From Cyanidioschyzon merolae (Eukaryota): DNA of 64,000 bases. The DNA lies in NCBI GenBank assembly GCA_000091205.1, contig AP006498.2. The stretch is one strand, 5' to 3'. Below the pieces are notes generated by a model. The model ran no database searches and was not told the DNA's origin. It worked only from the letters and a program-made list of their open reading frames with translations. A program made the position numbers and the translations under genes. Shown piece by piece: positions 1-61,859 of this stretch (position 1 is its first letter; every line of letters begins with the position of its first letter).

Positions 1-560
1 CCGGGTAGCAGGGTATTCGGGTGCAGCATGCCGGCACGATCGCCTGCCGCAGGACTCTGCTGCAACATACCTCCTGGGCGGCATGCATGCATGCAATGAC
101 GATTCCTGTACTCGTGCCGCATTCAAACGGAACACTGAACAGCCCGCTCTGTTCCTGACTTTTGCTTTGTCTTGAAATGTATTTGAGATGGACAGCTTGG
201 ACATTTGAATTGCAGCAATATGGCTCTACGGATTCCTGCGTGATTTTTGAATAGTTGGTTGTTTTTTCGAAGTGGTTCTTTCTCGACGCTTTGCCGCCAG
301 AATTCGTTATGTCACCGGAATCAGGATGATTCGCGACACCTTGTCACAAGGGTACGCGAAAGAACTCATATCCGAATAGATTTCGTATGTGCAACCATTC
401 TTGCTTCTCCTTTTGTTCTGTGCGGCATGCACAAAACACGCATGCTTCAAGTTTCCCATCTTTCTATTTCAGGGCAATTCTTCAGTGCAACAGTTCGCTT
501 CGTTGAATCGACGGCGGAACAAAACATGATGTCGTCGTCACCTGGCGCGTTCATATGTTT

Positions 561-1095
561 GATCAGTGAACCAAAAGAATCTCCAAATGACCATGTGGGG
601 TTACATGAATACCCACGCGCAGACGCCTCCCTACGTTCTTTGACGGGCCGCCTGCTATCGGTTTGAGGTTATCGAGGCACATTTCGAGCCTGGGAGGCTG
701 CCCCTCGAAGTTAGATAGGCGCAGCTCCGCGGATCTCGTTTTCAGCACCACAAATCGTCTGATACTGATGGCGTCGATGAAGACTCTGTTCATGAACTCC
801 TTGCGTTTATTGCCTCTGGCTGGACTCACCAGTGCAAATACTGCCAGAACGCGTGCCTTTCTTGCCACTACAGTCTTGTGATCTTCCCGTCGGGCAAAAA
901 TCTTTTCAAGTCGATCTCTCATCGACCTCCTCTTCTTCGTCATTACTAGCTCTTCTTCGCTCGATGGTCGAAGAGAAGATGATTCTCTTCGTTTATTTGC
1001 CCGGAAGCTAGCGATGACGGTGCTCCAGGTTCCCCGACTTCCATGCCCACAACTTTCCCTGGGGTTGTGCATTTCTGAAAATGAACGCACTTCTC
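561..1095 (-). mobile_element. Fanzor/TnpB-like element, miniature internally deleted copy A; keeps the 3' end module, the zinc-finger/RuvC-III coding remnant and the 5' end motif
   Basis: The minus-strand remnant reads ...SCGHGSRGTW...SSEEELVMTKKRRSMRDRLEKIF...ARVLAV...KRKEFMNRVFIDAISIRRFVV, matching the RuvC-III DRD.NAA.NI region of copy C (24658-27010). The 3'-terminal motif gcagacgcctcc / catgtggggttacatg and the 5' motif gaaaatgaacgcac are shared with copies C, D, E and G. Confidence 0.55.
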
Positions 1096-1099
1096 TATG

Positions 1100-2090
1100 C
1101 CCTTAGGTGAGGACCTTCACGGAGTGCGAAGGACTTGCGGAAGAAAGACGACATGTGCTCCGGTGTCACCGTGCGCTGAGCGCTTCAGCGATTCGCCCAG
1201 TGGAACGACCGTTACGTTTTACGATAGAAAACACGCATACGATGCACTTGAGCTATGGATTGTATGGAGGAATGAAAAGATGCTCTGCCCCGATAGAATC
1301 GGCAAGAGCTCGAACGCAAGGGGAATGATGAAATGCCACGTTCTCCAATAGAGGAATGTCGGCAAGTGTCAGGGTAAAGTCTTCAATGATTCGATAAAGT
1401 GGGTGCTGTTGTATGAGGGTTACCCACTCGAGAAACTACGGCCGCAAAATGAATCCATTGTAGCTAGAATAGATGATGTCTTAGTTCGCTTCGAGTTCGA
1501 TCGAACATATAGCAGGCTCCTTCTCTGCGAATACCCATATACGTTCCAACCGTTTTATCCGAAGCAAGCCTTATCGATAGAAGAAAACAAGCCGATGTCC
1601 TTGCGGTACATTACCGATCTCGACGTTCCAGGAACGCTGTCGTCGTGATTTCGATGGAGGATGCGCGTTCGTGAGCCAGGTCTTTTTTGCGGGACTATGT
1701 CCCAGTGTAATGTGCGCCACACGAAGAACCTGTTGAGAAACAGAGACGCCTTTGGTAGCCTCTATCGTCGCTTATGCTTCTCGTATGGTGATTATCGGGT
1801 CGTTTTCTACCATTGACCACGAGCAAGCTTTGAGAGCATCGGGTTGTTGGTGCGGAGCGAATATTCTTGTTTCTTACAGTGTTCCTCAACCATCTGAATA
1901 CTGTGGTATGAATGACATGAATGATGAATGCCGTCCTCCTTGCGCGGTTCAATGAAGAAGATAAATCCTGCAGGCAATTTGTCTTCGATTTATGCAGTAC
2001 CTTGCATCGTGATTTCCACCGCCTAACATACACTACAGCGGGGGTGAAACAAAATTGAGGTGAAACAGTATAACAAGCTCTTGCAGACGG
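1100..2090 (-). mobile_element. Tc1/mariner-like DNA transposon remnant, homologous to 39510-40560
   Basis: DNA aligns block by block with 39510-40560 (for example ccgttacgttttacgatagaaaa, gaaagtcttcaatgattcga, ctgttgagaaacagagacg, gtaccttgcatcgtgatttcca). Locus 39040-40560 encodes a degenerate DDE transposase C-terminus on the minus strand. Confidence 0.45.
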
Positions 2091-2094
2091 TTTC

Positions 2095-2830
2095 TCTGTA
2101 CTTGTCACGTCCAATCATAGATTCGGTACGGAAGACGGATCCCTCTCTCTTTGCAGCGATCTACGAAGCGGCATTCGAAAGGAGCAGCTCGAAACTGCTC
2201 CCGGGATCCGGCCCCAGGGGCTGCAGTCTCTTCTGACTGCATGAGAAACAGTCTCGAACTCGGACTAGAGTCAACGTTGCGATCGCTCCTAGTACAGACA
2301 ACGACAACACTTTGCAAAAATATCCGCATAGATGGATCGAAATTTCTCGACCTGCTCGTCAGTCTGGATTATCCTTTCGGTCTCTGTTTCACCATGAGCA
2401 GCATCGCATTCCGCTGATTTTCTGCGGTACAGAACTGCGTGTTCTCGCTTCTGCAATGGACAGCGTTGTCCTCGAGGACATCGCACATAAAAAACCTTTC
2501 AAGATAGCGTACGGTACTGAGAGGAGATAAGGAAGGCGTATATCATCGGGGCGCCTTCTGCTCCCGTCAGGATCACGTGCCGAGCGATAGGGGAAGTCTT
2601 CATGCGACACGGGGCGGCGCTCGTAGAAGACTCTATATTGAACATATGGGAACACCTGACCACAGTGACGCGTCACCGCTGCCACGGGCGTACCGAGGCT
2701 GCGTCCAAACAAGATGAAAAGTGCGACGCAAGGCTAGATCGCATGTTCAGCTTGTGCATGAAACGCACCGACAACAGCTGGAGGCAGCGTCATCGGGACG
2801 CAAGCTGCTATCAACCTCCTTCCACGGATG
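2095..2830. repeat. Unclassified dispersed repeat (family R5), copy 1; matches 8905-9650
   Basis: DNA and translated similarity to 8905-9650: cttgtcacgtccaatcatagattcggtacgg against cttgtcacgtcacgtaatcgattccgttcg; FLDLLVSLDYPFGLCF...IAFR against VLDLIFALDFPFTTC...IAFR; agatcgcatgttcagcttgtgcatgaaacg against agatcgcatcaaccgcctgtggataaaatg. Confidence 0.5.
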
Positions 2831-3151
2831 ATAATCGCACCTGAGGGAATGGAGACACCGGCGCATGCAGAGCTACAGATAAGACAGGAGGAAAGGAGGA
2901 ATTCGCAGAAAACCCCCATGAAAGCTAGAATTGATAACAGCGGGAACAGGCCCAAACTTGAGTTTGTCAGCACGATATAGCAAAGTCGACTCGTTCCATG
3001 CTATACGAACATGGGTGTAAGAGCAGATCAAATCTGCACTTGCTGTTGCAGATGCTTCGTATGCCACAGTGCAGCGCGCGCAGCGATTTGCTCTCTTTCT
3101 CGCTGCCATACGGGATACGCGCCTTGCTAGATAGCCTAGACGTCGAAGCAG

Positions 3152-4393
3152 ATGCCTACCAACCGCAAGGCAGCGGCGGGAAGCGGTCACGCCAGACAAA
3201 ACGCAACCGGTGTGGTTGCCACGAAAACACCCGAGCCACGAACGGCGCTGATCACAGGCGGCTCCGGGTTTCTCGGACGGCATCTCGTGGAGCTGCTGGT
3301 AGAGAGGGGCTACAACGTCATCGTTGTCGACCTGAAGCTCTTTCCTTTCACGGAGTATTCGGAAAGCGAGCTAGTTAAAAGTTTGCGCTCTCAAGTTCGT
3401 GACATAAGCGTAGATATAGGCAACTATGACGCGCTCTGGGAAGCGTTGCGAAGCGTTCCCCGAATCGATGCTGTGTTTCACTGTGCAACGGCGTCGCCGA
3501 CGGCCGCGAACGCTGCGAACCGCAAGCTGATGGAATACGTTAATATAGAAGGTACGAAACAAGTCATCCGATTCTGTCTCGAACGAGGTATTCGGTATCT
3601 GGTGTACACGTCCTCTGCTTCGGTTGTTTTCGCCGGACTCGACCTCATCGACGTTGACGAGGAGTCTGCCCCGCTTGCTAAGAAGGATATCGACTTTTAT
3701 ACGTACACGAAGAGGGTAGCAGAGCAGCTGGTTTTGCAGACAGCGAGCTCATCGTCTACGGATCCTGCCCGACGAGTACTGTATGCAGTTGCGCTCCGAC
3801 CATCGGGCATTTTCGGCGAATATGACCCCCTCTTTATACCGACGCTAGTGAGTAGGGCACGACAGGGTCGCATGAAATATATCATTGGCTCTGGGCGAAA
3901 TGCTATGGACTGGACCTACGTGAAGAACGTTGCCGAAGCGCACTATCTTGCTGCAGAGGCGTTGCAGGAAAGTGACAAGCGTGCCAAACAATTGACTGGT
4001 AAGGCCTACTTCATAACCAATGGGGACCCACGCTCTTTCTGGGGGTTTCTGGGGTCCATCCTGCAAGGTCTGGGATACCCGCCTCCACGGCATCGTTTGC
4101 CGTTCGCTCTGGTCTACTCCATTGCATGGCTCGTGGTGCTCATTGATGCGGTCGCGCGTTTACTAGGGCGTTCACTTTCAACGGATTTCACCCCAGGACG
4201 TGTTCTGCTCGCAACCTGCGAGCGTCGGGTAAGTTGTGCAGCCGCGAGGCGAGACTTGGGTTACAATCCGCGATTTTCGATCGAGGATGGCCTAGAGCGA
4301 ACGCTTCGATGGTTTCGCTCTCGGGGACTGGCAGCACAAACCGAGGCACCTATGGTTCAATCGGTACCGAAACCAGTAGCCACTACCACGTGA
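3152..4393 (+). CDS. NAD(P)-dependent 3-beta-hydroxysteroid dehydrogenase / sterol-4-alpha-carboxylate 3-dehydrogenase-like, extended short-chain dehydrogenase (NSDHL/ERG26 family)
   Basis: A 413-aa ORF with the Rossmann motif ALITGGSGFLGRHLVELLVERGYNVIVVD, then YTSSASVVF and YTYTKRVAEQLV (the catalytic Y..K region), laid out as in the 3-beta-HSD/epimerase family. The true start may lie downstream of the first M. Confidence 0.75.
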   Translation: MPTNRKAAAGSGHARQNATGVVATKTPEPRTALITGGSGFLGRHLVELLVERGYNVIVVDLKLFPFTEYSESELVKSLRSQVRDISVDIGNYDALWEALRSVPRIDAVFHCATASPTAANAANRKLMEYVNIEGTKQVIRFCLERGIRYLVYTSSASVVFAGLDLIDVDEESAPLAKKDIDFYTYTKRVAEQLVLQTASSSSTDPARRVLYAVALRPSGIFGEYDPLFIPTLVSRARQGRMKYIIGSGRNAMDWTYVKNVAEAHYLAAEALQESDKRAKQLTGKAYFITNGDPRSFWGFLGSILQGLGYPPPRHRLPFALVYSIAWLVVLIDAVARLLGRSLSTDFTPGRVLLATCERRVSCAAARRDLGYNPRFSIEDGLERTLRWFRSRGLAAQTEAPMVQSVPKPVATTT

Positions 4394-6810: not shown

Positions 6811-8100
6811 GATCTGTGAAACGAAAAATGTTCTACGATCATTTAGGGTACATTGATATCCGGCCGCAGATGCCACCCGGCCTTTTTTGACCGGCCGACT
6901 CCTACCGGGTTCATTTTCCCCTTGTACATTTCGACTCTGAGACGCTTCCCCACGATTTTGGATCTCGTCAGCTCCTCGGGTCTCGCCTTCGGCACCACAC
7001 ATCGTCTGATACTGATGGCGGCGTTGAAGTCCCGGTTCACGAACTCCATGCGTTTATTGCCCCGGGTTTAACTCACGAGTGCGAGGATTCATCGAACACG
7101 TGCCCTCAGTGCGACTACAGTCTCTTCTTCGCCTAGTCGGGGAAGCACTTTTTCTCGCGTACCTACCCTCGTTTTCTTCTTCCTGTTCGTCATTTGCTCT
7201 TCTTCGCTCGATAGTCGTCAAGCAGGGCATTTTTCGTTTCGCTTTTGTCGAACCCGGCGATGGCGGGCCTCCAGGATACCCCGGCTACCATATCCATAAC
7301 TTTTCCGTAGATTTTTTAAAAGTAAGCACACTTCGAACCTGTCAGCTATACACCGCGAAGAAGCACTTGATGACACGCACCTGGCAGAGGAACGCAATAC
7401 GGGCGAAGGACGATGATCACGGCTGTGCAACTGTGCTTGCTTGGTGCACTTCTGTGTGCACTGGGAGCGTTTGCGAGACCAGAGGACAAGCGTTGAACCC
7501 GTCGATTCTACTCCGGCAAAACAACCAGCACATGTGTTCCGAATCATCGGATTCCGTTCGTGGCTACCGAGTTATTCTGCGCGATGTTCGGGCGGCTGGA
7601 GCGACTAGACGACATCGCCTTTTGCTGGGTGTCTGCTTCCAGCATGGAGCATCCCGGGGCTCAACGTACCGTTCAGCGAATAGATGCGCGCGCCGCAGAG
7701 CTTCCATATGCTACTGGTGACTCGGCAGTTGCGTGACGATGCTTTAATGCTTCAAAGATCCGTATCTTGCATGCCGACTCGCATCTATTGTCGCTGAATG
7801 GTCCAGCGAAGAGGACGTAGCGAACAGGTCCCTCAGCATCGACAAATTCGACTTCGCACAGTGCGGAGTATTTCTCAGTGCTGAACTTTGTCCCTGGTGC
7901 TGCTGTTATCGACTGGACGACCATAATTTCCTCCGCCCGAGGGCGACGCAGCATTAGAAATCCTTTTTCCATGCCCAGACCAGAACAAATAGCGAAATCG
8001 ACACTTGTCAGCGTTTCAGGCGCATGAACCTGCATGGGTCTTACTCGCTTTCAAAGCGGTTTCATTGAAATCTAGAACGCCATTGCTGGAGTAATGCCAG
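6811..8100 (-). mobile_element. Fanzor/TnpB-like element, partial copy B (C-terminal about 1.3 kb plus 3' end)
   Basis: Minus-strand ORFs 7673..8035, 7218..7547 and 6843..7049 give VDFAICSGLGMEKGFLML...IMVVQSITAAPG...YSALCEVEF...FSDNRCESACK...MEFVNRDFNAAISIRRCVV, collinear with copy C motifs (helix + RuvC-II, a C..C knuckle, RuvC-III). The 3' end motif catttagggtacattgatatcc...gatctgtgaa sits at 6811-6850. Confidence 0.5.
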
Positions 8101-22756: not shown

Positions 22757-24289
22757 GTGGTACGCAGCGAGCAAGCGCTGGCGCCGCAGTCTACGATACC
22801 GCGTTGGCGCTCGCAGGCGAATCGCATCGGTCAGGGTCTTGTTGTGTTCCTAGCTGTGAGTTATGTGCTTGAGAAGGCGGTTCCACTGATGCAGTGGCTG
22901 GTGATGCGTCCCAAGAACAAGGTCGGTTCTAGAGCCGGCGTTACTGCGACGAACGTCGGGGCTACTGCTCCAGCTCCGGCTGCAGCTCCGGGAGCCTCTG
23001 GTCTGGACGCAATGGCACGCACCGGCGCTTCTAGTTCGAGCAGCGTTCAGAGGCAGTCATCCTGGACACCACCCGCGACTGCGCAGTGGTCGTCAGCCGT
23101 TGATCTTGTTGAACAGCGCACGAGTCGAAAGATCACGATTATCGGCGGCAAAGGCGGCGTCGGCAAGTCGACCATGGCTGCCGCCACCGCGGTACGGTTT
23201 GCGGACCAAGGTGAGACAACGCTGATTATCAGTACTGACCCTGCACATTCGTTGTCGGATTCCTTCGATCAGGATGTAAGTGGCGGTGCCCCGGTTCCAG
23301 TGCTTGCTGTGGACAACCTCTATGCCATGGAGATCAACCCTGAGCAGATGAAAACGTCTTTGAGAATGCTTCCGGATTCCGAGAAGCTTCAGATGATGAG
23401 CGGTATGGATATGGGCCTGGAAGACTTTGATTCATTGTTCGAGACGCTACCGCCAGGTTTCGATGAAGCGATCGCCCTCGTTGAAATCATGAAACTGATC
23501 CAGGGCGATCCGGCTTTTGCCAAGTTTGATCGGATCGTCATCGATACCGCGCCAACTGGACATACGCTCCGCCTCTTATCGCTGCCGGACTTTTTGGACT
23601 CGTTTCTCGGCAAGATCTTGACCATGAAGAACAAGCTCGGCAACGTTATGAACCAGTTTAAGGGCATGTTCAGTGGAGGCAATGATCAGCAAACCTTGGA
23701 TTCCGCCGATATAGATGAGCTCAAACGGAGCATGAACATGGTTCGCGCTCTGCTGCGCGATCCAAACCAGACAGAGTTTATCGTGGCAACCATCCCGACC
23801 ATGATGAGCGTGGCCGAAAGCGAACGCCTGGTGAAGGATCTCTCCCGGGAAAAGATTCCCTGTCGCCATATTTTTGTGAATATGGTACAGCCGCCAAATG
23901 ATTCATGCAGTTTCTGCAAAGCCCGTCGACGCGAACATGAGACCAATTACAAGTACATCGAACGCGTATTCCGAGACTTTAAGGTTGTTCCGGTCAAGTA
24001 TTTTGAACGCGAAGTGCGGGGCGCCCCAGCTCTTCGGGCGATGGCTTCGCAGTTGTTTGCAGATGACTCGTCTTCGGAACCGGGAACCGCAGCATCAACC
24101 GAGGACACATCGCGCCAAACGACAGAGACGCCTACGATTGCGCCACGCGCGGCCACAGAAGCAAAAGGCGAGCAAGTTGGTGGACGCGGGAACGGCGCAG
24201 GTGCGCACCATATCGCTGCATCGGGTGAGTCTGCGAACAACAACGCGCCGGCAGCGAATACCGCCACACAGCGAAGCTCAGAGCAATGA
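22757..24289 (+). CDS. GET3: GET3/ArsA-family ATPase (tail-anchored protein targeting factor GET3-like), single ATPase domain with N- and C-terminal extensions
   Basis: P-loop ITIIGGKGGVGKSTMAAATAV, then ISTDPAHSLSDSF, DRIVIDTAPTGHTLRLLSLP, and the CxxC pair NDSCSFCKARRREH typical of the Get3 zinc-binding dimer motif. About 125 aa precede the conserved core and an about 80-aa disordered tail follows it. Confidence 0.85.
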   Translation: MVRSEQALAPQSTIPRWRSQANRIGQGLVVFLAVSYVLEKAVPLMQWLVMRPKNKVGSRAGVTATNVGATAPAPAAAPGASGLDAMARTGASSSSSVQRQSSWTPPATAQWSSAVDLVEQRTSRKITIIGGKGGVGKSTMAAATAVRFADQGETTLIISTDPAHSLSDSFDQDVSGGAPVPVLAVDNLYAMEINPEQMKTSLRMLPDSEKLQMMSGMDMGLEDFDSLFETLPPGFDEAIALVEIMKLIQGDPAFAKFDRIVIDTAPTGHTLRLLSLPDFLDSFLGKILTMKNKLGNVMNQFKGMFSGGNDQQTLDSADIDELKRSMNMVRALLRDPNQTEFIVATIPTMMSVAESERLVKDLSREKIPCRHIFVNMVQPPNDSCSFCKARRREHETNYKYIERVFRDFKVVPVKYFEREVRGAPALRAMASQLFADDSSSEPGTAASTEDTSRQTTETPTIAPRAATEAKGEQVGGRGNGAGAHHIAASGESANNNAPAANTATQRSSEQ

Positions 24290-24657: not shown

Positions 24658-24900
24658 CCATCAGTAGACGTGGAGCGAAAACTTTTCGCGACCATGTAGG
24701 GTACATGGATACCGACGTGCAGACGCCTCCCGGCGTTTTTGGATAGGCCCCCAGTTATCGATTTCAGTTTCTACGTGTACACTTCAACATCTAGAGGCTG
24801 CCCTACGAATTTAGATCGCGTCAGCTCCTCGGGTCTGTTCTCCAGGATCGCAAATCTCCTGATATGGATTGCGGCGTTGAAGTCTCGGTTCACGAACTCC
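24658..24900 (-). ncRNA. Candidate omegaRNA-like structured 3' module of the Fanzor-like element (prediction from sequence only)
   Basis: The region that overlaps the RuvC-III coding end plus about 115 nt downstream is the best conserved part across all copies. It contains two adjacent hairpins whose sequences differ between copies but keep pairing. Confidence 0.3.
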
Positions 24901-26896
24901 ATGCGTTTCTTGCTGCTTCATGAACTCATCAATGCAAGGAGTCCTCGGACTCGTGCCCTGCGTTCCATTTCCTGTTCTGTCAGCTCTCCGCGGTTTTCGA
25001 TTTCCTCAACACGCCGCTGTATGTTCTCCATCTCGACCTTCTGAAGTGTACACCCCAGTTCGTGGTGCACACACGCGATGTTCGGAACTCACCTATCGGT
25101 TTTGTGATATAACGCTGTGCACACTCCTTGTACGCTCATGTCGTTGGAGCGGGTATGCACCCTTTTATGGACGCCCAGCGCCCTGCTCCGTTGCCAACTA
25201 CGAGCCTGTGACTCTCGACCTCCTTCAAGGCGCTCAACTCATGGAAAATATCGGTGAATGCCCGCTGCTTCCCACAGTATAGATTCATACGCCGACGAGC
25301 CCACCTGGGCTTAATATATTCTTTCCACAGCGCATCCCAATGAGCAGCTTGAGTTTTCATGAATTCCCGAAAAGCTTCAAGGTTCGCTCCACGGCTCGTA
25401 ACCTGGCTGATCGCTTCCAGGTGCTCATTCATTCCTGCATTCCATGCCTCAATGTTCTTCCTTGCATTCATTATTCCCGACTCTCGGTAGTATCTCGCTC
25501 TCGCGAACCGCAAAAGACGCATATCTTTCTGACGTAAGTTACCGTCAATGCCATCTTCCGTACGCTTGGGTACTGCGATGGATACGATTTTCGTCTTTCC
25601 AGGGTCCGCGCTGACGACAGTGTCGTTCTCCTGCACCTCCTGCGTGGCAGGATCCGCCTCTTTGTTTTCTGCATCCTTCGTCACGGGCGAAGCGGAGGAC
25701 GGAACAAGACGATCCGCCTTCAAGCGCCGATAGTACACACACGTTGATACTTCATCGCTTTCGATGATCCCTGTGAATACTTTTTTCTTGCGCATTTTGA
25801 GACGATTGAAGTCGAAGATATTCTTCCAGTATGTCTCCCGGTTTTCACCCATGAACTCCTTCCTGTTTACATCGACCTCTGGACTGATCTCCTTTATGAT
25901 GCCGTAAAAGACTCTGTAGTCGATCGTCACAAAATGCGACTAGGCGTCGCGTGCCGGAACGACATCGAAGCACTCCTCCAGAAGCGCAGCCTTCGGTTTC
26001 AACGACTCGTCATTTTTTCCCACACCCAACTCCATCTCCGCCTTGCGTTCGAATTCTCGATTCAGGAATACGAAATAATGCAGGATGAGGGGATGACATC
26101 TTTTTTCATCTTGTCTCATATCTGATAGCTTATCTGCTGGATTGACCAGCCCAAAAACCGCACGATGCTCTTGAGTAGCCGCACGGATCCGATAAGCTTC
26201 ATTCGTGCTCTCTTTCGACGCCCTCTTCTCGGTGGAATCGATCTCCTGTTCATGATGGCAATCTTTCGTGATGCCATTGAGGATGGCCCGTATCGATTCG
26301 CGAGAAGGATCCGGGCAGAGTGCAAACATGGAGCGCATCATGAGGCGTTTCAGGTTCAAGGTCGAATGGTTCTTCGGGTTCTTGATGTACGTCATCGCCC
26401 CGTGGCCGTAAATATCCGCGCCACCGCCGTATCTAGTGCAGTTGAAGCGGTATTCGACGTAGTTTTCTTGGACGGCGTGCACTCGCTCATTTCTTCTCGA
26501 CGCCTCCCCTGTGCCATGCATCGGGTGACGAGTAAAGGTCTTGTTCGAAAATTCTTCCCGAACCTCGACTCTTCCCATGTGCGTCACGTCGCGACGCATC
26601 TCCTTTTCGAAAGCATCAGCCCTGACGAGTGCGTTATAAGAATACTCAAGGAGTACGACTCGACACGGTTTCTGATAGCCTCTCGCAAATTTCACCTGTA
26701 GGGATGCTAAATTTCGCGTAGAAGACAGGCTTTCACATTTATCTCGTCGTACTGTCGTCTTTCGTGGAGCTTTTGACGTCGGGCCTCCTGCTTCTACTTC
26801 TTGGTCAGCTCCTGTTCCTCTAAACTCGGTTTTGTTTTTCGTTTTCTTTTTCTCGGTAGCCCGCGACTCCTGCCCTCCAGGATCCTCAACTTGCAT
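24771..26896 (-). pseudogene. Fanzor/TnpB-like RuvC nuclease gene, disrupted by two in-frame stops (TAG 25940-25942, TGA 25136-25138) and at least one frameshift near 24960
   Basis: Motifs in TnpB order: a lysine-rich N-terminus (EKKKTKNKTEF), RuvC-I VVSADPGKTKIVSIAV, a helix KQRAFTDIFHELSALKEVESHRLVVGNGAG, the zinc-finger lead-in AYKECAQRYITKPIGEFRTSRVCTTNWG, and RuvC-III MEFVNRDFNAAIHIRR (24861-24902). The two ORFs in the track are in the same frame, separated only by TAG-Ser-His-Phe. Confidence 0.55.
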
Positions 26897-27189
26897 TCCT
26901 GTAGCTTTACTTATTTATTTTTGAAAACGAACGCATTTCGAATACGTCGGCTGTAAACTAAGATACAGCACTTGAATGCACTAATTTGAGGGTTGGAACA
27001 GAATTCGATTGAAAGACTCTACGATGACGTCAACGCAAACACAACCTATAAGTTAGATCAACCAGCTGATGATTAGGATCGTGTTTCGCTTCGACGGCGA
27101 GTTGCGCGTCATATCTCAATGGTGGCAGATATGGAGGTGCGCGTATCTGCCGCGCTGTAGAAAAAGAGGAACAGGAACGAACCATTAAC

Positions 27190-27720
27190 GAGCTACGGGA
27201 TCACGATCTCTATCCGCCTTCACGGTAAGCGTTGAAAGAGGAAAAGCGTTCCGCATTTTCGAAAGTCTGCTACCTGGGCGTAAAGTCCCGCGAGCCGGAC
27301 GATTCTGCAAGATTTGGGCTTGATTCGCCTCCCAGTGGCGGGTACGATAGTGAGATCTGAGTCGCTCGTCCGAACGCAGCTCATTCTGAGGCTAGAAGTG
27401 GGTAGAATGCGCCTGGGCGTCGCCCTGGTTGCGGTTGTATCCCATCCCATGGGTTCGCACTGCCGTAGGCAGCACGTCTGCTTACACAGATTACAGGACC
27501 CGAAAATGGTTACATACTCGGACTCCGTATGAGGTGAAGCGTGCGTCGAGCCGATGCCTTCAGGGCTGTGGCAAAGCCGTTCTGTCTCCGTGTTGCATCC
27601 GCTCCAGCGGTTTAGGCGCTATTGCAGACGCTTGCGGCAGATGTTCAGCACAAGATCGACCGTATAAGGCGCCCAGTATATCCGAGAAGCAGTATGGGTT
27701 ATGGAACTTGGAGGAAACGC
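27190..27720 (-). mobile_element. Tc1/mariner-like transposon fragment (3' part), homologous to 39040-39560
   Basis: DNA alignment: ggaaaagcgttccgcattttcgaaag...gcgtcgccctggttgcggttg against ggaaaagttttccgtattttcgaagg...gcgtcgccctggtcgcgattg, and cgagccgatgccttcagggctgtggcaaagcc...atggaacttggagg against cgagccgacgccatctgtggtacggcaaagcc...atggaacttgcagg. Confidence 0.45.
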
Positions 27721-27772
27721 GTGAAATGATGGATGCTTCCGCGCGCGTTGATACCAAGCGCCCAGTCCGGGC

Positions 27773-28756
27773 ATGCTGGCATATGGACACGTTTTGTCGA
27801 CTTTGAAGTCGGACCATACCTGTATAAAATGGACATCATGGATCTCAAGGGCGGCGTCGCCGTTTACTGCGACCGCCTCTTTGCGATCCGTCACCGTTTC
27901 GTTTCCATCTCCGTGCAGAGCAGCACTGTTCGCGAACATGGCAGGGATTGGATCAGGGTTCGTTCCGACGTATACGTTACGTAGCGCTCGTGGCAGTTTC
28001 GGCGAAACAAAGTCTTTATCGCAACCGGCGAGAACCCGGGGACACCAGCGGTTAACTTTCGTGTCGAACGCGCGCCGGCGTTGCCAACTGGTCGCGAGTG
28101 CAGCCGAGGAGCGCCCGGAACGATCTCAAACGCAGAGCGAAATAGACTTTGCGAAACTTCAATTTTCGGAAGGTAATGAGTTGAGTGGTATGGTGTTCAA
28201 ACCGGATGCGGAATTAGCAAAGGCTGGGCCCGATGAGTCCCGTGCGCGACTCGCATACTCGAATGCATGCGAGGAGGCGATTAACAGCCAGATTAACGTG
28301 GAGTTCACCGCCTTTTACGTATACTATGCTTTGCACGCATACTTTGATCGGGATACGGTCGCGCTCCCAGGTTTTGCGGACTATTTCCGAAAGCAAGCGG
28401 AGGAGGAACGCGACCACGCTGTGAAACTCATGCACTATCAAAACAAACGCGGTGGGCGCGTTCACCTGAAGCCGATCGCGGTTCCAGCATTGCACTTCCA
28501 TAACGAGGAGAACTCGGATGCGATTTATGCAATGGAACTTGCGTTGCAACTTGAGAAATACGTGCAAATGAAGCTCATGGAAGTTTGGAAAGTGGCTGAT
28601 CGCGAGCGCGATGCGAATATGACGGATTTTATCGAGGATTTCCTCGACATGCAAGTCGAATCGATCAAAGAGATTTCAGATTATGTTGCTCAGTTGAAAC
28701 GTGTTGGAACTGGTCATGGCGTGTATCACTTTGATCGAGTGCTCGCTGACAAGTGA
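27773..28756 (+). CDS. Ferritin (plant/algal plastid-type, with an N-terminal presequence)
   Basis: Ferritin-like di-iron core [64 protein letters not shown]...[19 protein letters not shown]. About 130 aa come before the core, consistent with a transit peptide. An alternative start is the ATG at 27938 (MAGIGSGF). Confidence 0.85.
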
Positions 28757-31159: not shown

Positions 31160-31790
31160 AGCGAGTCCATAAAACGATAAACATCTCACGACAATGGAAG
31201 GTAAGTATCAACAGCCTCGCGCAGGCGCCTCCCAACCTTTCTTTTACCGTCCCTCTACCATCCGGTTCAGTTTATCCCAGCACGCATCGACTCTGAGGGA
31301 CTGCTCCACAAAGTCGTATCGTCTCAGCTCATCTGGTCTCGTCTTCAGCACCACACATCCCCTGGTATTGATGACGGCATTGAAGCCCCGGCCCATGAAC
31401 GCCATGCGTTCATTGCCTTCGGTGGAACTCACTATTGCAAGGATTCCTCGGCCTCGTGCCCTCAGTGCGATTAGAGTCCCGTCATCGTCTCGTCATGCGA
31501 ACACCTTTTCTCGGATATCTCCCCTCCTTTCTCTTCTTCTTCATCATCATCACTTGCTCTTCTTCGCTCGAAAGTCTGCGACAATAGGATTTTTATCGTT
31601 CGGTTTGCCGCGCACCCCGCGGTTAGAGGCCCTCAGGATCCTCGACTTCCATATCCATACCTTTCCCTAACATTTTCTATTTCTTCAAATGAACGCATTT
31701 CGAATACACCTGCTATAAACCGCGAAAAAGTATATGGCGATACGCACCTGGAGATGGAATACAATGCAAGTGAGCGACTGTAGGATCATT
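31160..31790 (-). mobile_element. Fanzor/TnpB-like element, miniature copy D
   Basis: The 5' end ggtttatagcaggtgtattcgaaatgcgttcatttgaagaaatagaaaa is followed by a retained start ATGGATATGGAAGTCGAGGATCCTGAG (MDMEVEDPEG, compare copy C MQVEDPGG). This is fused to the C-terminal remnant MAFMGRGFNAVINTRGCVV (RuvC-III) and the 3' end motif ...gcgcaggcgcctccc. Confidence 0.55.
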
Positions 31791-35977: not shown

Positions 35978-36575
35978 CACCTGAATTGTGTTCCATACCT
36001 GGGTTCGTTTCATCGTATGCTTTTTTTGCGGTTTAGAGCAGGTGTGTTCGAAGTGCGTTTACTTGAAGAAATATAAAACCCATGACATAGGTATGGACTT
36101 GCACGTCAGGGGTCCTGAAGGGCGATCATCGCGGGGGTTCGACCAGAAAACGAAACAATCCTCTCTTTGTCAACCATCGAGCGAAGCAGAGCAAGTGGCA
36201 AAGATGATGGTGATGATGATGATGATGAAGAGCGGAAATCCGTGAGACAAGGTGTCTACCCGACGGGACTGGAACGAGACTGTAGTGGCACGGAGGGAAC
36301 GAGTTCTAGCAATCCTTGCAAGGATGACTCCAAACAACGTCAATGCACGCATGAAGTTCGTGAAGTGATACTCCAACGCCGCTACCAATACGAGACGATG
36401 TCTTGTGTAGTGAAGACGAATTCCGCCGAGCTAACGCAATCCAACTTTGTGGGGCAGCTTCTCAGGCTCGAAGTGTGCCTCGATAAACTGAAAACGATAG
36501 CAGTTGACCGGTCATGAAAGGCTGCAGGCGTCTGCGCATGGGTAGTCATTCACTTTAGTATGTTGCTCAGAGAAG
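35978..36575 (+). mobile_element. Fanzor/TnpB-like element, miniature copy E
   Basis: The 5' end cacctgaattgtgttccatacctggg...gcggtttagagcaggtgtgttcgaagtgcgtttacttgaagaaatataaaac is followed by a retained start (ATGGACTTGCACGTCAGGGGTCCTGAAGGG), a degraded RuvC-III region (CTHEVREV...), and the 3' end ggctgcaggcgtctgcgcatgggtag. Confidence 0.55.
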
Positions 36576-37520
36576 GACATTTGTGTTGCCATGACTTGGC
36601 GCTGGCGATGCGTCAAAGCTGATGATTATGGCGCTAAAGAATCCCGCCAGACGCCGTGCGTCAACAACTGGACCCGTTAGGCGGTAGGTCACCTGCAGGC
36701 GTGTTTTCCAGGGTCCAAGCATCTGCACTCGCACCAGCATGTCAGTGGGTGCAGGCACGCGCCACCCGATCAACGCCTCATAGAGCGGGTGCGCCGGCGG
36801 TAATATCATCTCTAGGAATCGACTGGAAACGGTACAGATGCGTACCGCTCGCAGGGTTACTTCCACGGCGGAACGTCTCCTGAAACGGGTAAGCACGCGG
36901 GTAGAGGGATAGGTGTTCCTTCTCACCAGCGGGTGCCAAGCAAAGGCCTGCGTCGCGCAACTGCGGTGCAATTCACAAACGTTGGCGGAGGGGAAATTCG
37001 CTCCCCAATATTCATCCTATCCGCAAAGTTTCTACAACGGGTCGCAGCACAAAGGCAGGCCTACATACGAAGACTCTCGGATCCCAGGATCACCACGAGA
37101 CGCGACCGCGCTGCAGGTGAACCACACCTCCAGCCGACATCCTCCGTGGCATGACACAGCAGCGCAGACTCCGTGCGACGTCCGCACCGGCAAGGCGGGC
37201 GCTCTGTCAGACGCTCACGGCAGACTCGGTGTGCACAACGGAACGTTCGCATTTACCAGTATCTCCGAGGGGCAGCATGGATTGTGGACGTTGATGTTAG
37301 GCGGCAAAATGGACGCATCCCCGATCACTGGTGTTCCATGACGTAATCAGAGATGCCTGGTCAGCATGAACGTTCTTTCGATCAAAAAAAAATCGCCCCA
37401 GAAACAGCTGCCCTATGGACGCAAACGAGGAAAACCCGCACACCAATCCATATCGCCAGCTTACAATCGCTAACACACATCACGCAAGGTGCTCCATCGG
37501 GCAATGTTGTGCGAATCCGA

Positions 37521-38951: not shown

Positions 38952-39039
38952 GCGCTGGCAATCCGTGCGCAGGAGATTCGGGTTCGCAGCACCGTAATCT
39001 GAAACGAATCACTAGTTGGCAATTCGATAACAATTGATT

Positions 39040-40560
39040 TCCCTCTCTAAGCCCAGCGTTGATCACGGGGAAAAGTTTTCCGTATTTTCGAAGGTTTATC
39101 TTCTGGACGGAGGGAACCGCGAACCGGACGAGTCTGACGGGCTCGTGCTTCATGCTCCGCCCACTGGCGGGTGCAGAGGCGCGACCCGCGCAGCTCGTCC
39201 GCGACGCAGTCTCTTCTGAGACTAGGAGAGGTTACGCTGTATCTGGGCGTCGCCCTGGTCGCGATTGACTCGTAGACTATCGCTTTGCACTGTCGATGGA
39301 AAAACATCTGTCTGTCCAGCTTGCAATCTCCCAGAATGATGATGAATCCCGACCCTGTGTCGTGTGCACCACGCCTCGAGCCGACGCCATCTGTGGTACG
39401 GCAAAGCCCTTCTGCCCCCGTGCTAAGGCTGCATCCGCGCTACCGGCGCTACGGCGGGTGCTCAGGGCCGGCACTTGGCGCACGAAAGAACGCACAAAAC
39501 GACCAGTATATACGAGGAGAGGGAATGGAACTTGCAGGTACGGGGCGGCAGCCTGATGAATGCTTTCCAGAATACCAATGTTTATCTAGGAATCTGGGAT
39601 TGATAGTCAGTGTAAACGTTTTGTCAAACCGAAAAAAAACTGTCCCAGTAGAATGATCATTGCGTTTCACGATAGAAAATACTCCTTCGATGGGCCTGCA
39701 AAACGGGGTGTGCGGAGCAATGCATAGCAGCTCGACCCCGATAGCATCGGCAAAAGCTCGAACGCAACGGGAATAGAGAAATACCTCGTTGTCCAATAGA
39801 AGGACGTCGCCAGAAGTCAGGGGAAAGTCTTCAATCATTCGACAAAGTTGTTGGTGCTGTTGGATGAGGCATATCTACGAAGGAAACTGAGCCCGCCGAA
39901 TGAATCCACTGCAGCTACAACAGCTGTTGATGTCATCGTTCTCTTCGAGTTCGATCGTAAATACAACGGGCGCCCTGCTCCTCTAATACTCACTTACGCT
40001 CTGCCTATATCGTACGAAGCAAGTCTTATCGACTGAAAAAATGAACCGACGTTCCTGGGCTTTGTCTGGGGAGCGACGCTCCGGGAACACTGTCGTTACG
40101 ACTTTAGTGGAAGATGACCGTGCATGAAACCGCAATTATTTGTCCGCAACTGTATTCCAGTGTTTCCAGAATAACACGAACAGGTTGTTGAGAAACAGAG
40201 ACGTCTGTAGCGGCTAGTATCGTGGCTTTCGCTTTCCATAAAGTGATCAACGGTTCGTTCTCTACGATGGACCGCAAGCTGTCTTTACGATGATCGGTTT
40301 CTGGCGCGGAGCGCATCGTATTCTCTTTGTTTCAGTGCTCCTAAACCATCTGAGTACTGTGGTACGTCTAACCTGAAGGGGGAATGAAGCCCTCGATGCC
40401 TTGTTGCGTAAAGAATACGTATCCTACAAGCAATTCGTCTACCATCTATATACGGTACCTTGCATCGTTATTTCCATCGCCTGCTGGACACCGCGGCGAG
40501 GGCGAAACACACATGGGTTGCACCGCTCGTACGGTACGAATGGCAGCTTCTGGAGCCGCT
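39040..40560 (-). mobile_element. Tc1/mariner-like DNA transposon, about 1.5 kb, with a degenerate DDE transposase on the minus strand
   Basis: Minus ORF 39449..39838 ends ...GDVLLLDNEVFLYSRCVRAFADAIGVELLCIAPHTPFCRPIEGVFSIVKRN, the third-catalytic-residue region matching D-N-A--H......-L-LPPYSPDLNPIE of Tc1/mariner/IS630 transposases. Minus ORF 40104..40316 (WKAKATILAATDVS) resembles the first-Asp W..V.FSDES region. The element is contiguous with fragment homologues at 27190-27720 and 1100-2090. Confidence 0.55.
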
Positions 40561-43834: not shown

Positions 43835-44420
43835 CCTCAATTGTGGTCCATCTCCTGGGGCGTGTCGCTGTACGCTTTTTCGCGGCTCATAGCAGACGCG
43901 TTCGAAGTATACTGATTTTTAAAAAAATCTGAGGAAAAGTTATGGATAAGGTAGTCGAAGGATGCTGGGGGCCCGTCATCGACGAGTTCGATAAAAACGA
44001 AAAATCTTTTCCTCGTCGAGAATGGAGCGAAGAAGAGCAAGTGACGAAGAAGAAGATGACGATGAGAGATAGACGAGAAAAGGTTTTTGCCCAATGGGTC
44101 GATGACGAGACTGCAGTGACATAGAGCGCGCGAGTTCTAGCAATCCTTGTACTGGTCAGTTCCACCCGCGGCAAGACACGCATGGAGTTCGTGAACCGAG
44201 ACTTTGACGCCGTTACTCATATACGGATATGAGCGGTGCAGGAGAAGAGGCCCGAGAAGCTGACGAGAGCCAACTTCGTGGGGGAACCTCTCAAAGTTGA
44301 ATTGTATGAGGAGAAGTTGAAGCCAGTAGTAGCTGGCCGGTCAAAAAAGTCTGGCAGGCGTCTGCAGCTAGGTAGGTAACAAGTTACCTTACTATCGCGA
44401 AATGCTTTCGCTCCGCTGAG
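43835..44420 (+). mobile_element. Fanzor/TnpB-like element, miniature copy G
   Basis: The 5' end ...gtacgctttttcgcggctcatagcagacgcgttcgaagtatactg is followed by a retained start (MDKVVEG) fused to ...SEEEQVTKKKMTMRDRREKVFAQW...RMEFVNRDFDAVTHIRI. The 3' end carries hairpins ggtaacaagttacc (44375-44388) and gcgaaatgctttcgc (44397-44411). Confidence 0.55.
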
Positions 44421-49311: not shown

Positions 49312-51786
49312 TTAACTGGCGAGACGTTGGCCAAAGCGACGCAACGCCTCTGCGCCGCGCACCTCTTGAGGCTCCAGCGGCAGCACGACGAGCCGCATAT
49401 CTCGCGCGTAGAGTTCGTCGATCTCTCGCAGATACTTTTGCTGCATGCCAATTCGCGCGCATACCATATCGATGCGTTCGGCTTCAGTGGCGCTCGGAGG
49501 AAAGAGCTGGTTCACGACGATGTTGTGCGCGTCGATGTCGTGCTCTGCCAGGTCCTGAATCAAGCGCTCGGTCTCGTAGACAGAGAGAAACTCAGCGATG
49601 CAGACACATATAAAAGTGGTTCGCTCGGGGTCCTGGAACTGCTTCACAACGCGCAGAATGGTTTCTTGCATGTTTGACAGTCGCTCGGCGATCTCCTCGT
49701 CGGGTCTTCGACCACCGCCCACGCCGAGGCCGGAGCTCTCCGCGAGACTCGAGGCCATCGAGAGCGCACCCGCGAATCTCTGGCGCATTTCTTCTAGTTT
49801 TTGGAGGCCTTTCTGCAGCAGGGCAGGGAAGGAGAGCAAACGCAGCGTGTGCCCTGTCGGTGCCGTGTCCAGTACGATGACATCGTAGTCGAGTCCCTGA
49901 ATGCGCTGCATAAGGCGGGTGAATGCAATCGCATCATCCAGGCCTGGAACAGCCTGGAGCAGGTCACGAATAATGTCGGACGGTGACGCCCCAAGCATCA
50001 TGGCGGCCAGCGCAGTTCGGGGATCGTTTGCGTTCGTGGCACCGGCAGCCAAATCACTAAGATTCGTATCTTGCACAGCGTTCCCAATATCCTGCAGGAA
50101 ATGCGCAGTATCGACTTCCAAGACATCTAGGATGCCAGGGCCTCCAATGCCATGAACGCGCACTGGGCGCATCACCTCGTCGATATCGTTGACGCTCAGA
50201 GACTGGGTGTTCGAAAGCGACACGGTAAAGTTTTGGCCAAACGCGTCACTCAGACTATGTGCGGGATCGGTAGATACCAAAAGCACCCTCCGCTGACGTC
50301 GAGTATCCTCTGCCAACTGAATTGCAAGCGCTGAAGTCGTTGTGGTTTTCCCGACATTGCCCTTGCCGCTGGCAATAATGAGCTCGAGGCTGCGTGCCTC
50401 AAGGACGTTGCGCAGCGTGGGTTCAAACGGCGAGTTTTGTGCCGGTTCCAGCGGCCGAATGCCACTATCTACGAGCAGTCGTTTGCCAAAAGCGCGAAGA
50501 TCGTCGACACCGCGCACCTCATTCCGCAGCATCGGCACCCTAGTTATGTGAAAATCCTCCGCGTACAAATCTTCGATCTGCTGCAAATACTTGGACTGGA
50601 TCTCAACTCGGGATTGGAAGAGGGTCAGAGCGCTCCAACCACAGGGCTCTTGCGGCAGACACACAGGCAAGTACTTTGGCGGCATTTGCGGCACATGGCT
50701 CGGCAGATCCGCGACCCACAACACCTGGTTGATCACTAGGTTTGAGCATGTCATTCGCATTCGCCGCAACTCCCGCAAAAGCCGATCTGTCTCATACAGT
50801 GACAGGAACTCGGGCATACACACACAAACGAAGGCCGTCTTTGAGGGATCCCGAAACTGCGCATCCACTCTGCGGACAATGCTGAGCAACTCCTCGATTT
50901 TGCCCACGATCTCCTCGTCGAATGCATTAGCTGTGGCGCCCATGTCCGGCGTGCCGCTCATGCGTAACATCGACGACGCCATGTTGAGCATTGGCGCAAG
51001 GCGAGAGCGCAGATCCAACAGGCGACTCAAGCCCTTTTCTAATACGGCGGGAAAAGAGAGGAGCTTTAGGGCATGCCCCGTCGGTGCCATGTCGAATATG
51101 ATCAAATCGAACGTCATTTCCTGCACAGACTTCATCATCTGCCCAAATGATAACGCTTCATCTATGCCAGGCACCGAGGAGATCAGTTCCGAGACCAGGC
51201 TGCTCAGACCGAACGGGTCATCCTCGACGCCGGGGAGCGCCGCACGCGCGCCTTCCTCGCCATCGGCCGCAACGCCGCCAAAGCCGTTTCCCAGCAGGGC
51301 GCGTCCGAGATCCGTCTCCGCGAAGTCGCGCTCTGGGTCGATTTCCATAGCGTAGAGGTTGGGATAACCTCGTACTGGAAGCGGATCTCGAGCGAACCTT
51401 TGTCCGAACGCATCACTCACGTTATGGGCCGGGTCTGTGGATATCACGAGAACGCGTTGGTTCGGCCTCCGTAACGCGGCCTGAATACCTGTCGCACAGG
51501 CACAAGTTGTTTTCCCTTGGCCTCCTTTTGCTGTAAAAGCTATCCATTGCAGAGTCTCAGAGCTGAGAAGGTTTGAAAGCCCTTCGCCGAAAGTCATAAC
51601 GCGGAGTCTCCGCTGGCGTTGCAAAGAGCATCGAATGGCGGATGCAGTGCGCACGCGGGACTGCCTCGATGGCTGGTGCTGCGACGTTGCGGCGTATCGC
51701 ACGTTCGCCACTGGGCTGGTGCCAGGCCGCCAAGCTCCAATACATGACGCACAGTGCAACGAACTCTGAAATACGTGAACCAGCAC
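49312..51786 (-). CDS. Tandem two-domain ArsA/GET3-family ATPase (ArsA-like, internally duplicated)
   Basis: An 824-aa ORF. Half 1 has IAFTAKGGQGKTTCACATG, VISTDPAHNVSDAFGQRF and DMAPTGHALKLLSFP. Half 2 has IIASGKGNVGKTTTTSALA, VSTDPAHSLSDAFGQNF and DTAPTGHTLRLLSFP. About 60 aa come before the first P-loop; an alternative start is 51597. Confidence 0.85.
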   Translation of the reverse strand: MLVHVFQSSLHCASCIGAWRPGTSPVANVRYAATSQHQPSRQSRVRTASAIRCSLQRQRRLRVMTFGEGLSNLLSSETLQWIAFTAKGGQGKTTCACATGIQAALRRPNQRVLVISTDPAHNVSDAFGQRFARDPLPVRGYPNLYAMEIDPERDFAETDLGRALLGNGFGGVAADGEEGARAALPGVEDDPFGLSSLVSELISSVPGIDEALSFGQMMKSVQEMTFDLIIFDMAPTGHALKLLSFPAVLEKGLSRLLDLRSRLAPMLNMASSMLRMSGTPDMGATANAFDEEIVGKIEELLSIVRRVDAQFRDPSKTAFVCVCMPEFLSLYETDRLLRELRRMRMTCSNLVINQVLWVADLPSHVPQMPPKYLPVCLPQEPCGWSALTLFQSRVEIQSKYLQQIEDLYAEDFHITRVPMLRNEVRGVDDLRAFGKRLLVDSGIRPLEPAQNSPFEPTLRNVLEARSLELIIASGKGNVGKTTTTSALAIQLAEDTRRQRRVLLVSTDPAHSLSDAFGQNFTVSLSNTQSLSVNDIDEVMRPVRVHGIGGPGILDVLEVDTAHFLQDIGNAVQDTNLSDLAAGATNANDPRTALAAMMLGASPSDIIRDLLQAVPGLDDAIAFTRLMQRIQGLDYDVIVLDTAPTGHTLRLLSFPALLQKGLQKLEEMRQRFAGALSMASSLAESSGLGVGGGRRPDEEIAERLSNMQETILRVVKQFQDPERTTFICVCIAEFLSVYETERLIQDLAEHDIDAHNIVVNQLFPPSATEAERIDMVCARIGMQQKYLREIDELYARDMRLVVLPLEPQEVRGAEALRRFGQRLAS

Positions 51787-60350: not shown

Positions 60351-61859
60351 ACTTTATTTCGATGACAAAACGTTTACATTGACCATGGATACCTGATTTC
60401 CGGGTGGGTGTTCGTAATCGAAAAGGCGTCCATCATGATGCACCCTATCTCCAAGCTCCGTTACGTATACTTCCTCTAGGATGTAATGGTCGTTTCGTAC
60501 GTTCAATCGTTCGTCAGGTGCCTGCCTTGCTGCACCCGCAATCGCAGCTATGCCGCTTGTGCAGATCCATCACGGAGGCAGAACGCCTTTGTCGCATCAC
60601 TGAGGGTGTCTTAACGAGGCGTGATTCATTCAACAAGGGGTCGGAGTACGTGATCATTCTGAGAGCCTGCATGCTGCGCAGACAGACCTTGTACCTGCGG
60701 CAGCGGGAAGCGACGTACTAGGAGTCCACTGCGACCAGGGCGATGCCCAGACACGCAGCATACCCGCTCCGAGCCCCAAAATAACCTGCGTTTCGGACGA
60801 GTTGCTCAGGTCTCGCTAAAGCACTCGCCAACGGGGGAGAGTACGACGAATTAGCCTACCAGACTTGTCCGGCGCGCAGGACCTTCCGCCAATAAGGTAA
60901 ACGTTCCACAGTATGAAAACCTTTTCCCTCTTTTACCGTTTATCGTAGTTGGGGAGAGAAACTGTCATCTCGTTGGCAATGACTCGTTTGTCTCTGCTCT
61001 TTGTTCCACGGCACTGATTTCGAACGGAATTGACAACAGCCGAAAGACACGGAGGGTCGCTGGAAAAAACATTGAAAGAAAACAAACCAGTCACAAACCA
61101 TTTATCACAGAACAACTATCTTGAAGCCGCACACACCACGCCCGCCTAAGAGGTCTAGTTTTTCCGGAGAAGCTCTAAAAATGGGTTAACGCGGGGTGTT
61201 CGGGCGATAGGAAGGAAGCCCACGACAAGGTCCTTGACCGCAATGCACGGAGGCGCGGAGGCAGTAGCACCAGAAAATATGGACGAGAGTTCTGAGCAGT
61301 CATCCGCCCCTCCCGAAACAACGCTGTAGGTTCGGGCACAAATACTGGATCAATCCTTGAATTCGGGCTCAGTTTAACCCTCTACCTTGGGTACCTACCT
61401 CAACTTTGGAAACAATCTCGGCGGATGCTTTGGAAGACGGCTGGCAGTATGTTCGCGATCGATGCTGGAACAAACGACTTGCCCGCCTATGTGTTTGGGG
61501 AGCGGATGCGAAGCCGCTGAAAAGGTGGTTTGCAGACTGTTCCCAGTGATTGAGGGGAGCTTCACGCGTCCGGCAAGATAAAGGTCGCATTCGAATCGAC
61601 CTTGACTAATGTACCTCTGATTCTATGCTAGCGCTGCGCCAAGCACTCAATGAACGACTGGAATGCGGGAGGCGCTGGTGGCATGTGCGTTCACACACCC
61701 CGTCGAGGGTACATCTAAATCGACAACGTATCTCTGGAGCACCGCAGCGTTACTCCTATTCCCTTGTGCGCTACGACTCTATAGGTTTCGCATCATGGAA
61801 TATTTGCGGGATAGCCTCGGAATTGAGCTACGAAATATCGAATTACCAGTAGAGTAAAG

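Follow-up and report, generated by a model that had tools for sequence, protein, structure and literature searches.

The stretch analysed here (the window) comprises 64,000 nucleotides of DNA of the red alga Cyanidioschyzon merolae. Between an ORF (open reading frame) for an ArsA-type ATPase and the gene for a chloroplast ferritin, most of the space is occupied by a near-full-length, degenerate copy of the transposon CMe-1A, which carries the remnant of a gene of the Fanzor1 family. The features of this copy are as follows.

24668..27802, minus strand: near-full-length degenerate CMe-1A Fanzor1 transposon copy (blastn and global alignment against the consensus)
27167..27802 (approximate), minus strand: 5' module corresponding to TE-N2_CMe (consensus 1-635), collinear with the consensus
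24693..26902, minus strand: remnant of the 734-codon Fanzor1 (CMe-1) ORF, a pseudogene
25751..25759, minus strand: TDG motif of the WED domain, mutated to SDE (consensus ETDG, window ESDE)
25598..25606, minus strand: RuvC-I DPG motif, catalytic Asp retained (SADPGKT)
25082..25093, minus strand: alternative RuvC-II Glu motif, consensus DEFRTS, here GEFR(TS), Glu kept
24882..24890, minus strand: RuvC-III NRD motif, catalytic Asp retained (VNRDFNAA)
24771..24773, minus strand: premature TAG, codon 709 of 734
24668..24711, minus strand: 3' tail peculiar to the subfamily, containing two small hairpins

CMe-1A is the single Fanzor1 family listed for C. merolae (Bao & Jurka, 2013, Mobile DNA 4:12; PMC3627910). 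In that study it was described as a family whose ~150 copies each share ~80% identity with a consensus of ~3 kb, without terminal inverted repeats (TIRs), with undetermined target-site duplications (TSDs) and with one ORF for a 734-aa protein. Intact ORFs were reported to be kept in some copies, and a second family, TE-N2_CMe (~70 copies), was found to be 95% identical to the 5' 635 bp of CMe-1A. When the 3169 bp consensus from the supplement of the same paper was aligned to the window using blastn, one collinear high-scoring segment pair joined window positions 27738-24711 to consensus positions 65-3092 (79.5% identity, 3042 columns, 28 gaps), and a global alignment with the consensus pushed the ends of the element to about 27802 and 24668. 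The 5' part shared with TE-N2_CMe (consensus 65-640) lies inside the same aligned block. When the remnant is conceptually translated in the ancestral register, it shares 68% identity with the 734-aa CMe-1 protein of that paper. A search of the element for TIRs found no arm pair connecting both ends, in agreement with the published description. The segment 24668-27802 is an insertion of CMe-1A, the Fanzor1-carrying family of C. merolae, that is old and has been inactivated; we place the probability of this reading at roughly 93%.

An initial annotation, made from the letters of the window, had already recognized a Fanzor/TnpB-like protein in a eukaryotic nuclear genome, and the flanking genes, the profile matches and the predicted fold of a relative all bear this out. 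The span that it gave, 24658-27010, is replaced by the limits from the consensus alignment; its 5' terminus was set at 27010 because a family of short derivatives, described below, ends there. The further claim that the locus had not been annotated stands in one respect. The accessions BAM81842-BAM81846 each correspond to other ORFs in the window, and GenBank therefore appears to be without a gene call at the Fanzor locus. However, the copy belongs to a family that is already known, with its consensus, protein and copy number in the literature since 2013 as CMe-1A. Neither C. merolae nor red algae came up when the text of supplements of Saito et al. was searched.

Four ORFs of the window are exact matches to proteins of C. 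merolae 10D (BAM81839, BAM81842, BAM81846 and BAM81849), and the flanking ferritin, the fifth flanking protein to be matched, is likewise a C. merolae 10D protein (BAM81845). Because these neighbouring proteins match exactly, the window is nuclear DNA of C. merolae 10D. It also contains a gene with a nucleoporin Nsp1 domain.

The damage to the gene was counted against the consensus ORF, which occupies positions 906-3110 of the CMe-1A consensus. On the minus strand, ORFs are found at 26896..25940 (318 aa), 25930..25136 (264 aa), 25070..24918 (50 aa) and 24902..24771 (43 aa), which join into a conceptual protein of ~708 residues. Read in the ancestral register, the remnant contains seven stops (codons 35, 64, 69, 319, 587, 659 and 709), three frameshifting indels of +4 (~26853), -1 (~26607) and +2 (~25077), and two indels that stay in frame. 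The three collinear frames of the initial annotation are thus present with their motif peptides in order, but the damage is heavier than it had supposed. The true, basic N-terminus, RKRKRKTKPSLEEQELTKK*KQEARRQKLHERRQYDE... (RKRKRKTKPS..EEQE..KQEARRQ), is encoded in a different frame that is broken by three stops, and the 318-aa ORF itself runs off the ancestral frame from ~26853 to ~26607 (its residues ~15-96). The seven stops and the three frameshifts leave the window copy unable to encode a nuclease. It is a pseudogene, a molecular fossil, and the distribution of substitutions over the three codon positions (141/107/173) fits largely neutral decay. Related copies in metagenomes are mostly broken; in only 2 of 81 loci does an ORF reach >=650 aa and still take in the RuvC-III motif.

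The peptides on which the Fanzor assignment was originally based (VVSADPGKTKIVSIAV, KQRAFTDIFHELSALKEVESHRLVVGNGAG, AYKECAQRYITKPIGEFRTSRVC and MEFVNRDFNAAIHIRR) are present and collinear on the minus strand. Comparison of the translation with the consensus and with an alignment of 88 diverse family members (A5, also used as a search profile) agrees with the claim that a DPG motif of the Fanzor kind and an NRD-type RuvC-III motif follow one another collinearly. The RuvC-I sequence ADPG is common to the consensus and the window copy, and its Asp is invariant across A5. At the canonical RuvC-II position a G is found (VVGNGAG in the window versus VVAYGAG in the consensus), and GEFRTS follows ~35 residues downstream with the alternative Glu that is invariant in A5; a rearranged Glu site of Fanzors has been described (PMC10530073), and the DPG motif has been defined (PMC10711439). 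At RuvC-III, NRDFNAA is the same as in the consensus. All three sites, DPG, the alternative Glu and NRD, vary little or not at all across the family. The TDG motif, described as characteristic of Fanzor1 (PMC10711439), is missing from the window copy, which is, by comparison with the consensus, a loss through decay.

Membership of the Fanzor1 family was examined by profile and fold. A word-indexed search gave 44 homologs (36-70% identity), all of them metagenomic, and an exhaustive profile search revealed a large family, with 2186 representative clusters at a threshold of E <= 1e-3, of which 335 reach E <= 1e-30; most are 600-700 aa long. The A5 profile matched three solved Fanzor1 proteins, and in these matches the DPG, DEFRTS and NRD blocks align to the corresponding Fanzor1 blocks.

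Parasitella parasitica Fanzor1 (PpFz1), 9cf0: E 7.5e-21
Spizellomyces punctatus Fanzor1 (SpuFz1), 8gkh: E 3.6e-15
Guillardia theta Fanzor1 (GtFz1), 9cer: E 3e-10

The fold was tested on an intact relative, P0043 (699 aa, ~35% identity), and not on the window pseudogene. AlphaFold with a shallow alignment of 20 close homologs gave an unusable model [predicted local distance difference test (pLDDT) 46.6]; redone with the 88 diverse sequences of A5, the AlphaFold (AF2) model reached a pLDDT of 89.4 and a predicted template-modelling score (pTM) of 0.87. In a Foldseek search of this model against the PDB, the top seven matches were all Fanzor1 (SpuFz, PpFz and GtFz; E 1e-15 to 3e-18), with target-normalised template-modelling scores to Fanzor1 structures of 0.57-0.73, followed by Cas12 proteins at E values of 4e-5 and above. 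In the structural comparison that the initial annotation had proposed, Fanzor1 structures are thus the first matches of the model. In its proposed profile comparison, OrfB_IS605 and OrfB_Zn_ribbon gave no significant match; the A5 profile matches solved Fanzor1 proteins. Because both profile and fold match Fanzor1, the outcomes that it had named as refuting it, the lack of a TnpB/Fanzor profile match or of a RuvC fold, were not what was found at the family level. On the profile and the predicted fold, the assignment of this protein family to Fanzor1, a TnpB-like RuvC nuclease, holds at the level of the family. A precomputed match for the homologs, PF26935, was considered and set aside; it is a weak match to DUF8286, and it was absent from both the Pfam copy searched and the literature search.

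The CMe-1 family can be set against the Fanzor1 proteins of known structure, SpuFz1 (8GKH, 9CEU-9CEZ), PpFz1 (9CF0-3) and GtFz1 (9CER-T). The RuvC motifs DPG, alternative Glu and (N)RD align throughout, whereas the overall sequence identity is 11-15% and the CMe-1 clade is without the CxxC...CxxC zinc ribbon of these three proteins. Prokaryotic TnpB (IS200/IS605, IS607) and Cas12f share a RuvC-based ancestry with the family, and Cas12 proteins are among the weaker fold matches; the Fanzor1 family stands apart from them through DPG in place of D-hydrophobic-G, a rearranged Glu, REC regions of greater size and its occurrence in a eukaryote. With respect to CMe-1A itself, the window copy has the same host and the same order of parts, in which a TE-N2_CMe-like 5' module precedes the one Fanzor1 ORF and TIRs are lacking, and it differs in being pseudogenised and in its last ~45 nt, a different tail that resembles the short derivatives.

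Some Fanzor1 genes are carried by Tc1/Mariner transposons (e.g. PUl-1; Fanzor1c association, Jiang et al., 2023). On metagenome contigs (loci L002-L005), the gene of the intact relative P0043 comes next downstream of a gene for a DDE_3 (PF13358) transposase on the same strand, with a 69-aa ORF between the two genes in two of the four loci, and six contigs from different samples (JGI, ENA and Logan) carry the identical P0043 protein. The position of P0043 beside a DDE_3 transposase agrees with the published association, and the locus has the look of a Fanzor1 element of the Tc1/Mariner type that is still live. The window copy and the CMe-1A consensus differ from such elements in that no transposase accompanies them.

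Several observations weigh against the identification of the window copy as a CMe-1A insertion with a Fanzor1 gene. As a single sequence, the repaired protein gave no Pfam match, no relevant NCBIfam match and no match to PDB sequences, and a profile of 14 sequences found nothing in the PDB. Because both the single sequence and this shallow profile failed, the Fanzor1 assignment draws its support from the deeper profile and from the model of a relative with only ~35% identity. Furthermore, a C4 zinc finger between [TS][TS] and RD has been called strictly conserved (Bao & Jurka; PMC3627910), and this zinc ribbon, which is present in PpFz1, SpuFz1 and GtFz1, is absent here: no CxxC pairs occur in CMe-1 or the window copy, and none lie between the alternative Glu and RuvC-III (window 24900-25090) in 47 of the 49 clade members parsed. 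A peptide that had been taken as the lead-in to a zinc finger is accordingly followed by no CxxC zinc ribbon in CMe-1, in the window copy or in most of the clade. CMe-1A is not known to have a transposase, TIRs or TSDs (PMC3627910). In addition, in the global alignment the last ~45 nt (24668-24711) differ from the 3' end of the consensus (3093-3169). Since the 3' tail departs from the consensus after position 3092, the window copy is a subfamily variant of CMe-1A.

The family is represented repeatedly in the window. The claim that the element is multi-copy is upheld by DNA and protein similarity, with five short derivatives and further pieces; the repaired protein has four further partial matches within the window, and these repeats are backed by DNA similarity. 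The five short elements, of ~0.5 kb, share one architecture: consensus ~800-970, a short remnant and ~2840-3085 (the last ~290 nt).

6866..7376, minus strand: short derivative copy A (consensus 826-969 and 2850-3084), alignable with copies B-E over its whole length
43876..44414, plus strand: short derivative copy B (consensus 840-969 and 2840-3085)
31238..31729, minus strand: short derivative copy C (consensus similarity; alignable with the other copies)
36022..36472, plus strand: short derivative copy D (consensus similarity; alignable with the other copies)
566..1092, minus strand: short derivative copy E (consensus similarity; alignable with the other copies)
60360..61006, plus strand: solo TE-N2_CMe-like element (consensus 1-640, 80.8% identity)
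39001..39626, minus strand: solo TE-N2_CMe-like element (consensus 4-628, 77.7% identity)
37114..37374, minus strand: TE-N2_CMe-like fragment (68% identity)

Because the five short elements are mutually alignable throughout, they form an amplified subfamily of non-autonomous deletion derivatives. Their 5' limit is the equivalent of window position ~27010. The C. merolae genome is known as repeat-poor; at least nine fragments of the CMe-1A family lie in these 64 kb.

The 3' end of the element had been described as a conserved non-coding tail of ~115 nt and as the place where such elements encode their omegaRNA; much of that tail proves to be a coding remnant, and the tests made for an omegaRNA yielded no positive sign of one. 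The consensus ORF ends 25 codons past the TAG at 24771, and the consensus and the homologs P0008, P0014 and P0015 continue through KLEAVVGGRSKKTGRRLHVSWRRFV; because they read on, ~75 nt of the 115-nt tail is a coding remnant. Beyond it lies the tail of the subfamily (24668-24711), along which the resemblance to the short copies of the window extends, and in which the minimum-free-energy fold shows two hairpins, CCATGTA-CCC-TACATGG (24692-24708) and GCGAAAAGTTTTCGC (24675-24689). An Rfam scan of the element gave no match. The 3' 123 nt of the window copy folds no better than shuffled sequences (z = -0.02), and some related 3' ends reach z = -3.1 to -3.5. Across 56 related 3' ends, RNAalifold returned just a trivial stem of 7 pairs, and a structure mapped by hand from the best single fold, in which a long-range stem is combined with a hairpin at the terminus, was paired at 76.2%, compared with 75.6% for shuffles. 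Its covariation did not leave the range of the controls, and a control in which it was slid by +3 paired equally well. Because covariation did not exceed that of the shuffles and the slide control was equal, no omegaRNA structure is claimed. In those Fanzor1 and TnpB systems that have been characterized, transcription at the element's 3' end supplies the guide (omega/reRNA), which overlaps the end of the ORF (PMC10711439 among other sources), and by analogy a location of the omegaRNA at the 3' end is plausible.

Small hairpins also close other 3' termini. The window tail, consensus positions 3093-3169 and the ends of loci L008-L087 are sequence-unrelated versions, each of which ends in such a hairpin: GCGAAAAGTTTTCGC in the window and elsewhere CGTTCGA-CTT-TCGAACG, or CGTTTTTC-TTTT-GAAAGGCG with G.U pairs. 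The recurrence of terminal hairpins is suggestive of a structural requirement, without statistical support.

By homology, the ancestral CMe-1A element would have encoded a 734-aa Fanzor1, an omegaRNA-guided double-strand DNA endonuclease with a D-E(alt)-D RuvC site formed by DPG, DEFRTS and NRD (PMC10432273, PMC10530073, PMC10711439). The insertion has since decayed through stops, frameshifting indels and loss of TDG, and the half-kilobase derivatives and TE-N2_CMe pieces are its relatives. The data presented here establish the identity with CMe-1A, the host, the fold and motifs of the family, and the decay; RNA guidance, the location of the omegaRNA and any role in transposon maintenance are inferred from other Fanzor1 systems.

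It is conceivable that, although the ORF is dead, the 3' ends of the window copy and of the five short derivatives still give a working omegaRNA that is used in trans by intact CMe-1. All five derivatives keep the 3' ~290 nt, the region from which the guide RNAs of the Fanzor1 and TnpB systems studied originate, overlapping the end of the ORF; the predicted fold has hairpins close to the terminus, the z values of related 3' ends against shuffles go down to -3.5 in some cases, and some CMe-1A copies have intact ORFs (Bao & Jurka; PMC3627910). However, the window copy has a fold z of only -0.02, Rfam is without a match, and the 76.2% against 75.6% pairing over 56 ends comes with covariation no higher than in the controls. 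The 3' region is moreover the least conserved part of the window copy relative to the consensus (0.61 identity), and deletion derivatives keep transposon ends whether or not an RNA is involved. We consider such a function in trans unlikely. Slightly less likely again is the more specific proposal that the short derivatives are guide-RNA-only satellites, that is, non-autonomous omegaRNA carriers used in trans by the few intact CMe-1 nucleases of a clade without the zinc ribbon; if this were true, C. merolae would hold a distributed repertoire of RNA-guided targeting.

Two other explanations differ from that of a decayed CMe-1A insertion in its origin or its present use. An insertion of the prokaryotic TnpB/IS605 type, or a bacterial contaminant, in place of a eukaryotic Fanzor would account for the general RuvC ancestry common to TnpB and the CMe-1 family, and Pfam Cas12f1-like_TNB (PF07282) appears in one homolog, but at E 0.23 and 12 bits, below its cutoff of 26.3. 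Neither the repaired protein nor its homologs match OrfB_IS605 or OrfB_Zn_ribbon of Pfam significantly, the best structural and profile matches are to Fanzor1 and not to TnpB or Cas12f, and the DPG and alternative-Glu signatures belong to Fanzors. This origin is scarcely credible: bacterial TnpB and contamination are ruled out by the flanks, which are exact nuclear genes of C. merolae, a nucleoporin among them. Co-option of the insertion as regulatory DNA, supplying the promoter or 5' untranslated region of the ferritin gene, is suggested by geometry, since the 5' end of the element (~27802) lies 136 bp upstream of the ferritin start codon at 27938 (BAM81845). The intergenic regions of C. merolae are short, however, so that such proximity is expected by chance, and we regard co-option as very improbable.

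The identification of a decayed CMe-1A copy has little discovery value, the C. merolae Fanzor1 having been published in 2013 and the window copy being a pseudogene. It serves as a positive control, in which a Fanzor was recognized from raw sequence motifs alone. For specialists in transposable elements and Fanzors, the interest lies in a large Fanzor1 clade (2186 clusters at E <= 1e-3) that lacks the 'strictly conserved' C4 zinc ribbon, and in a family of short derivatives that retains just the 5' leader (~170 nt) and the 3' ~290 nt.

With regard to the neighbouring genes, the longest ORF call for ferritin begins at 27773, inside the transposon, and the annotated BAM81845 begins at 27938. The window contains two ArsA/GET3-type ATPase genes (22757-24289 and 49312-51786), in one of which a long N-terminal extension precedes a single ArsA domain, while the other encodes 824 aa with the ArsA domain duplicated.

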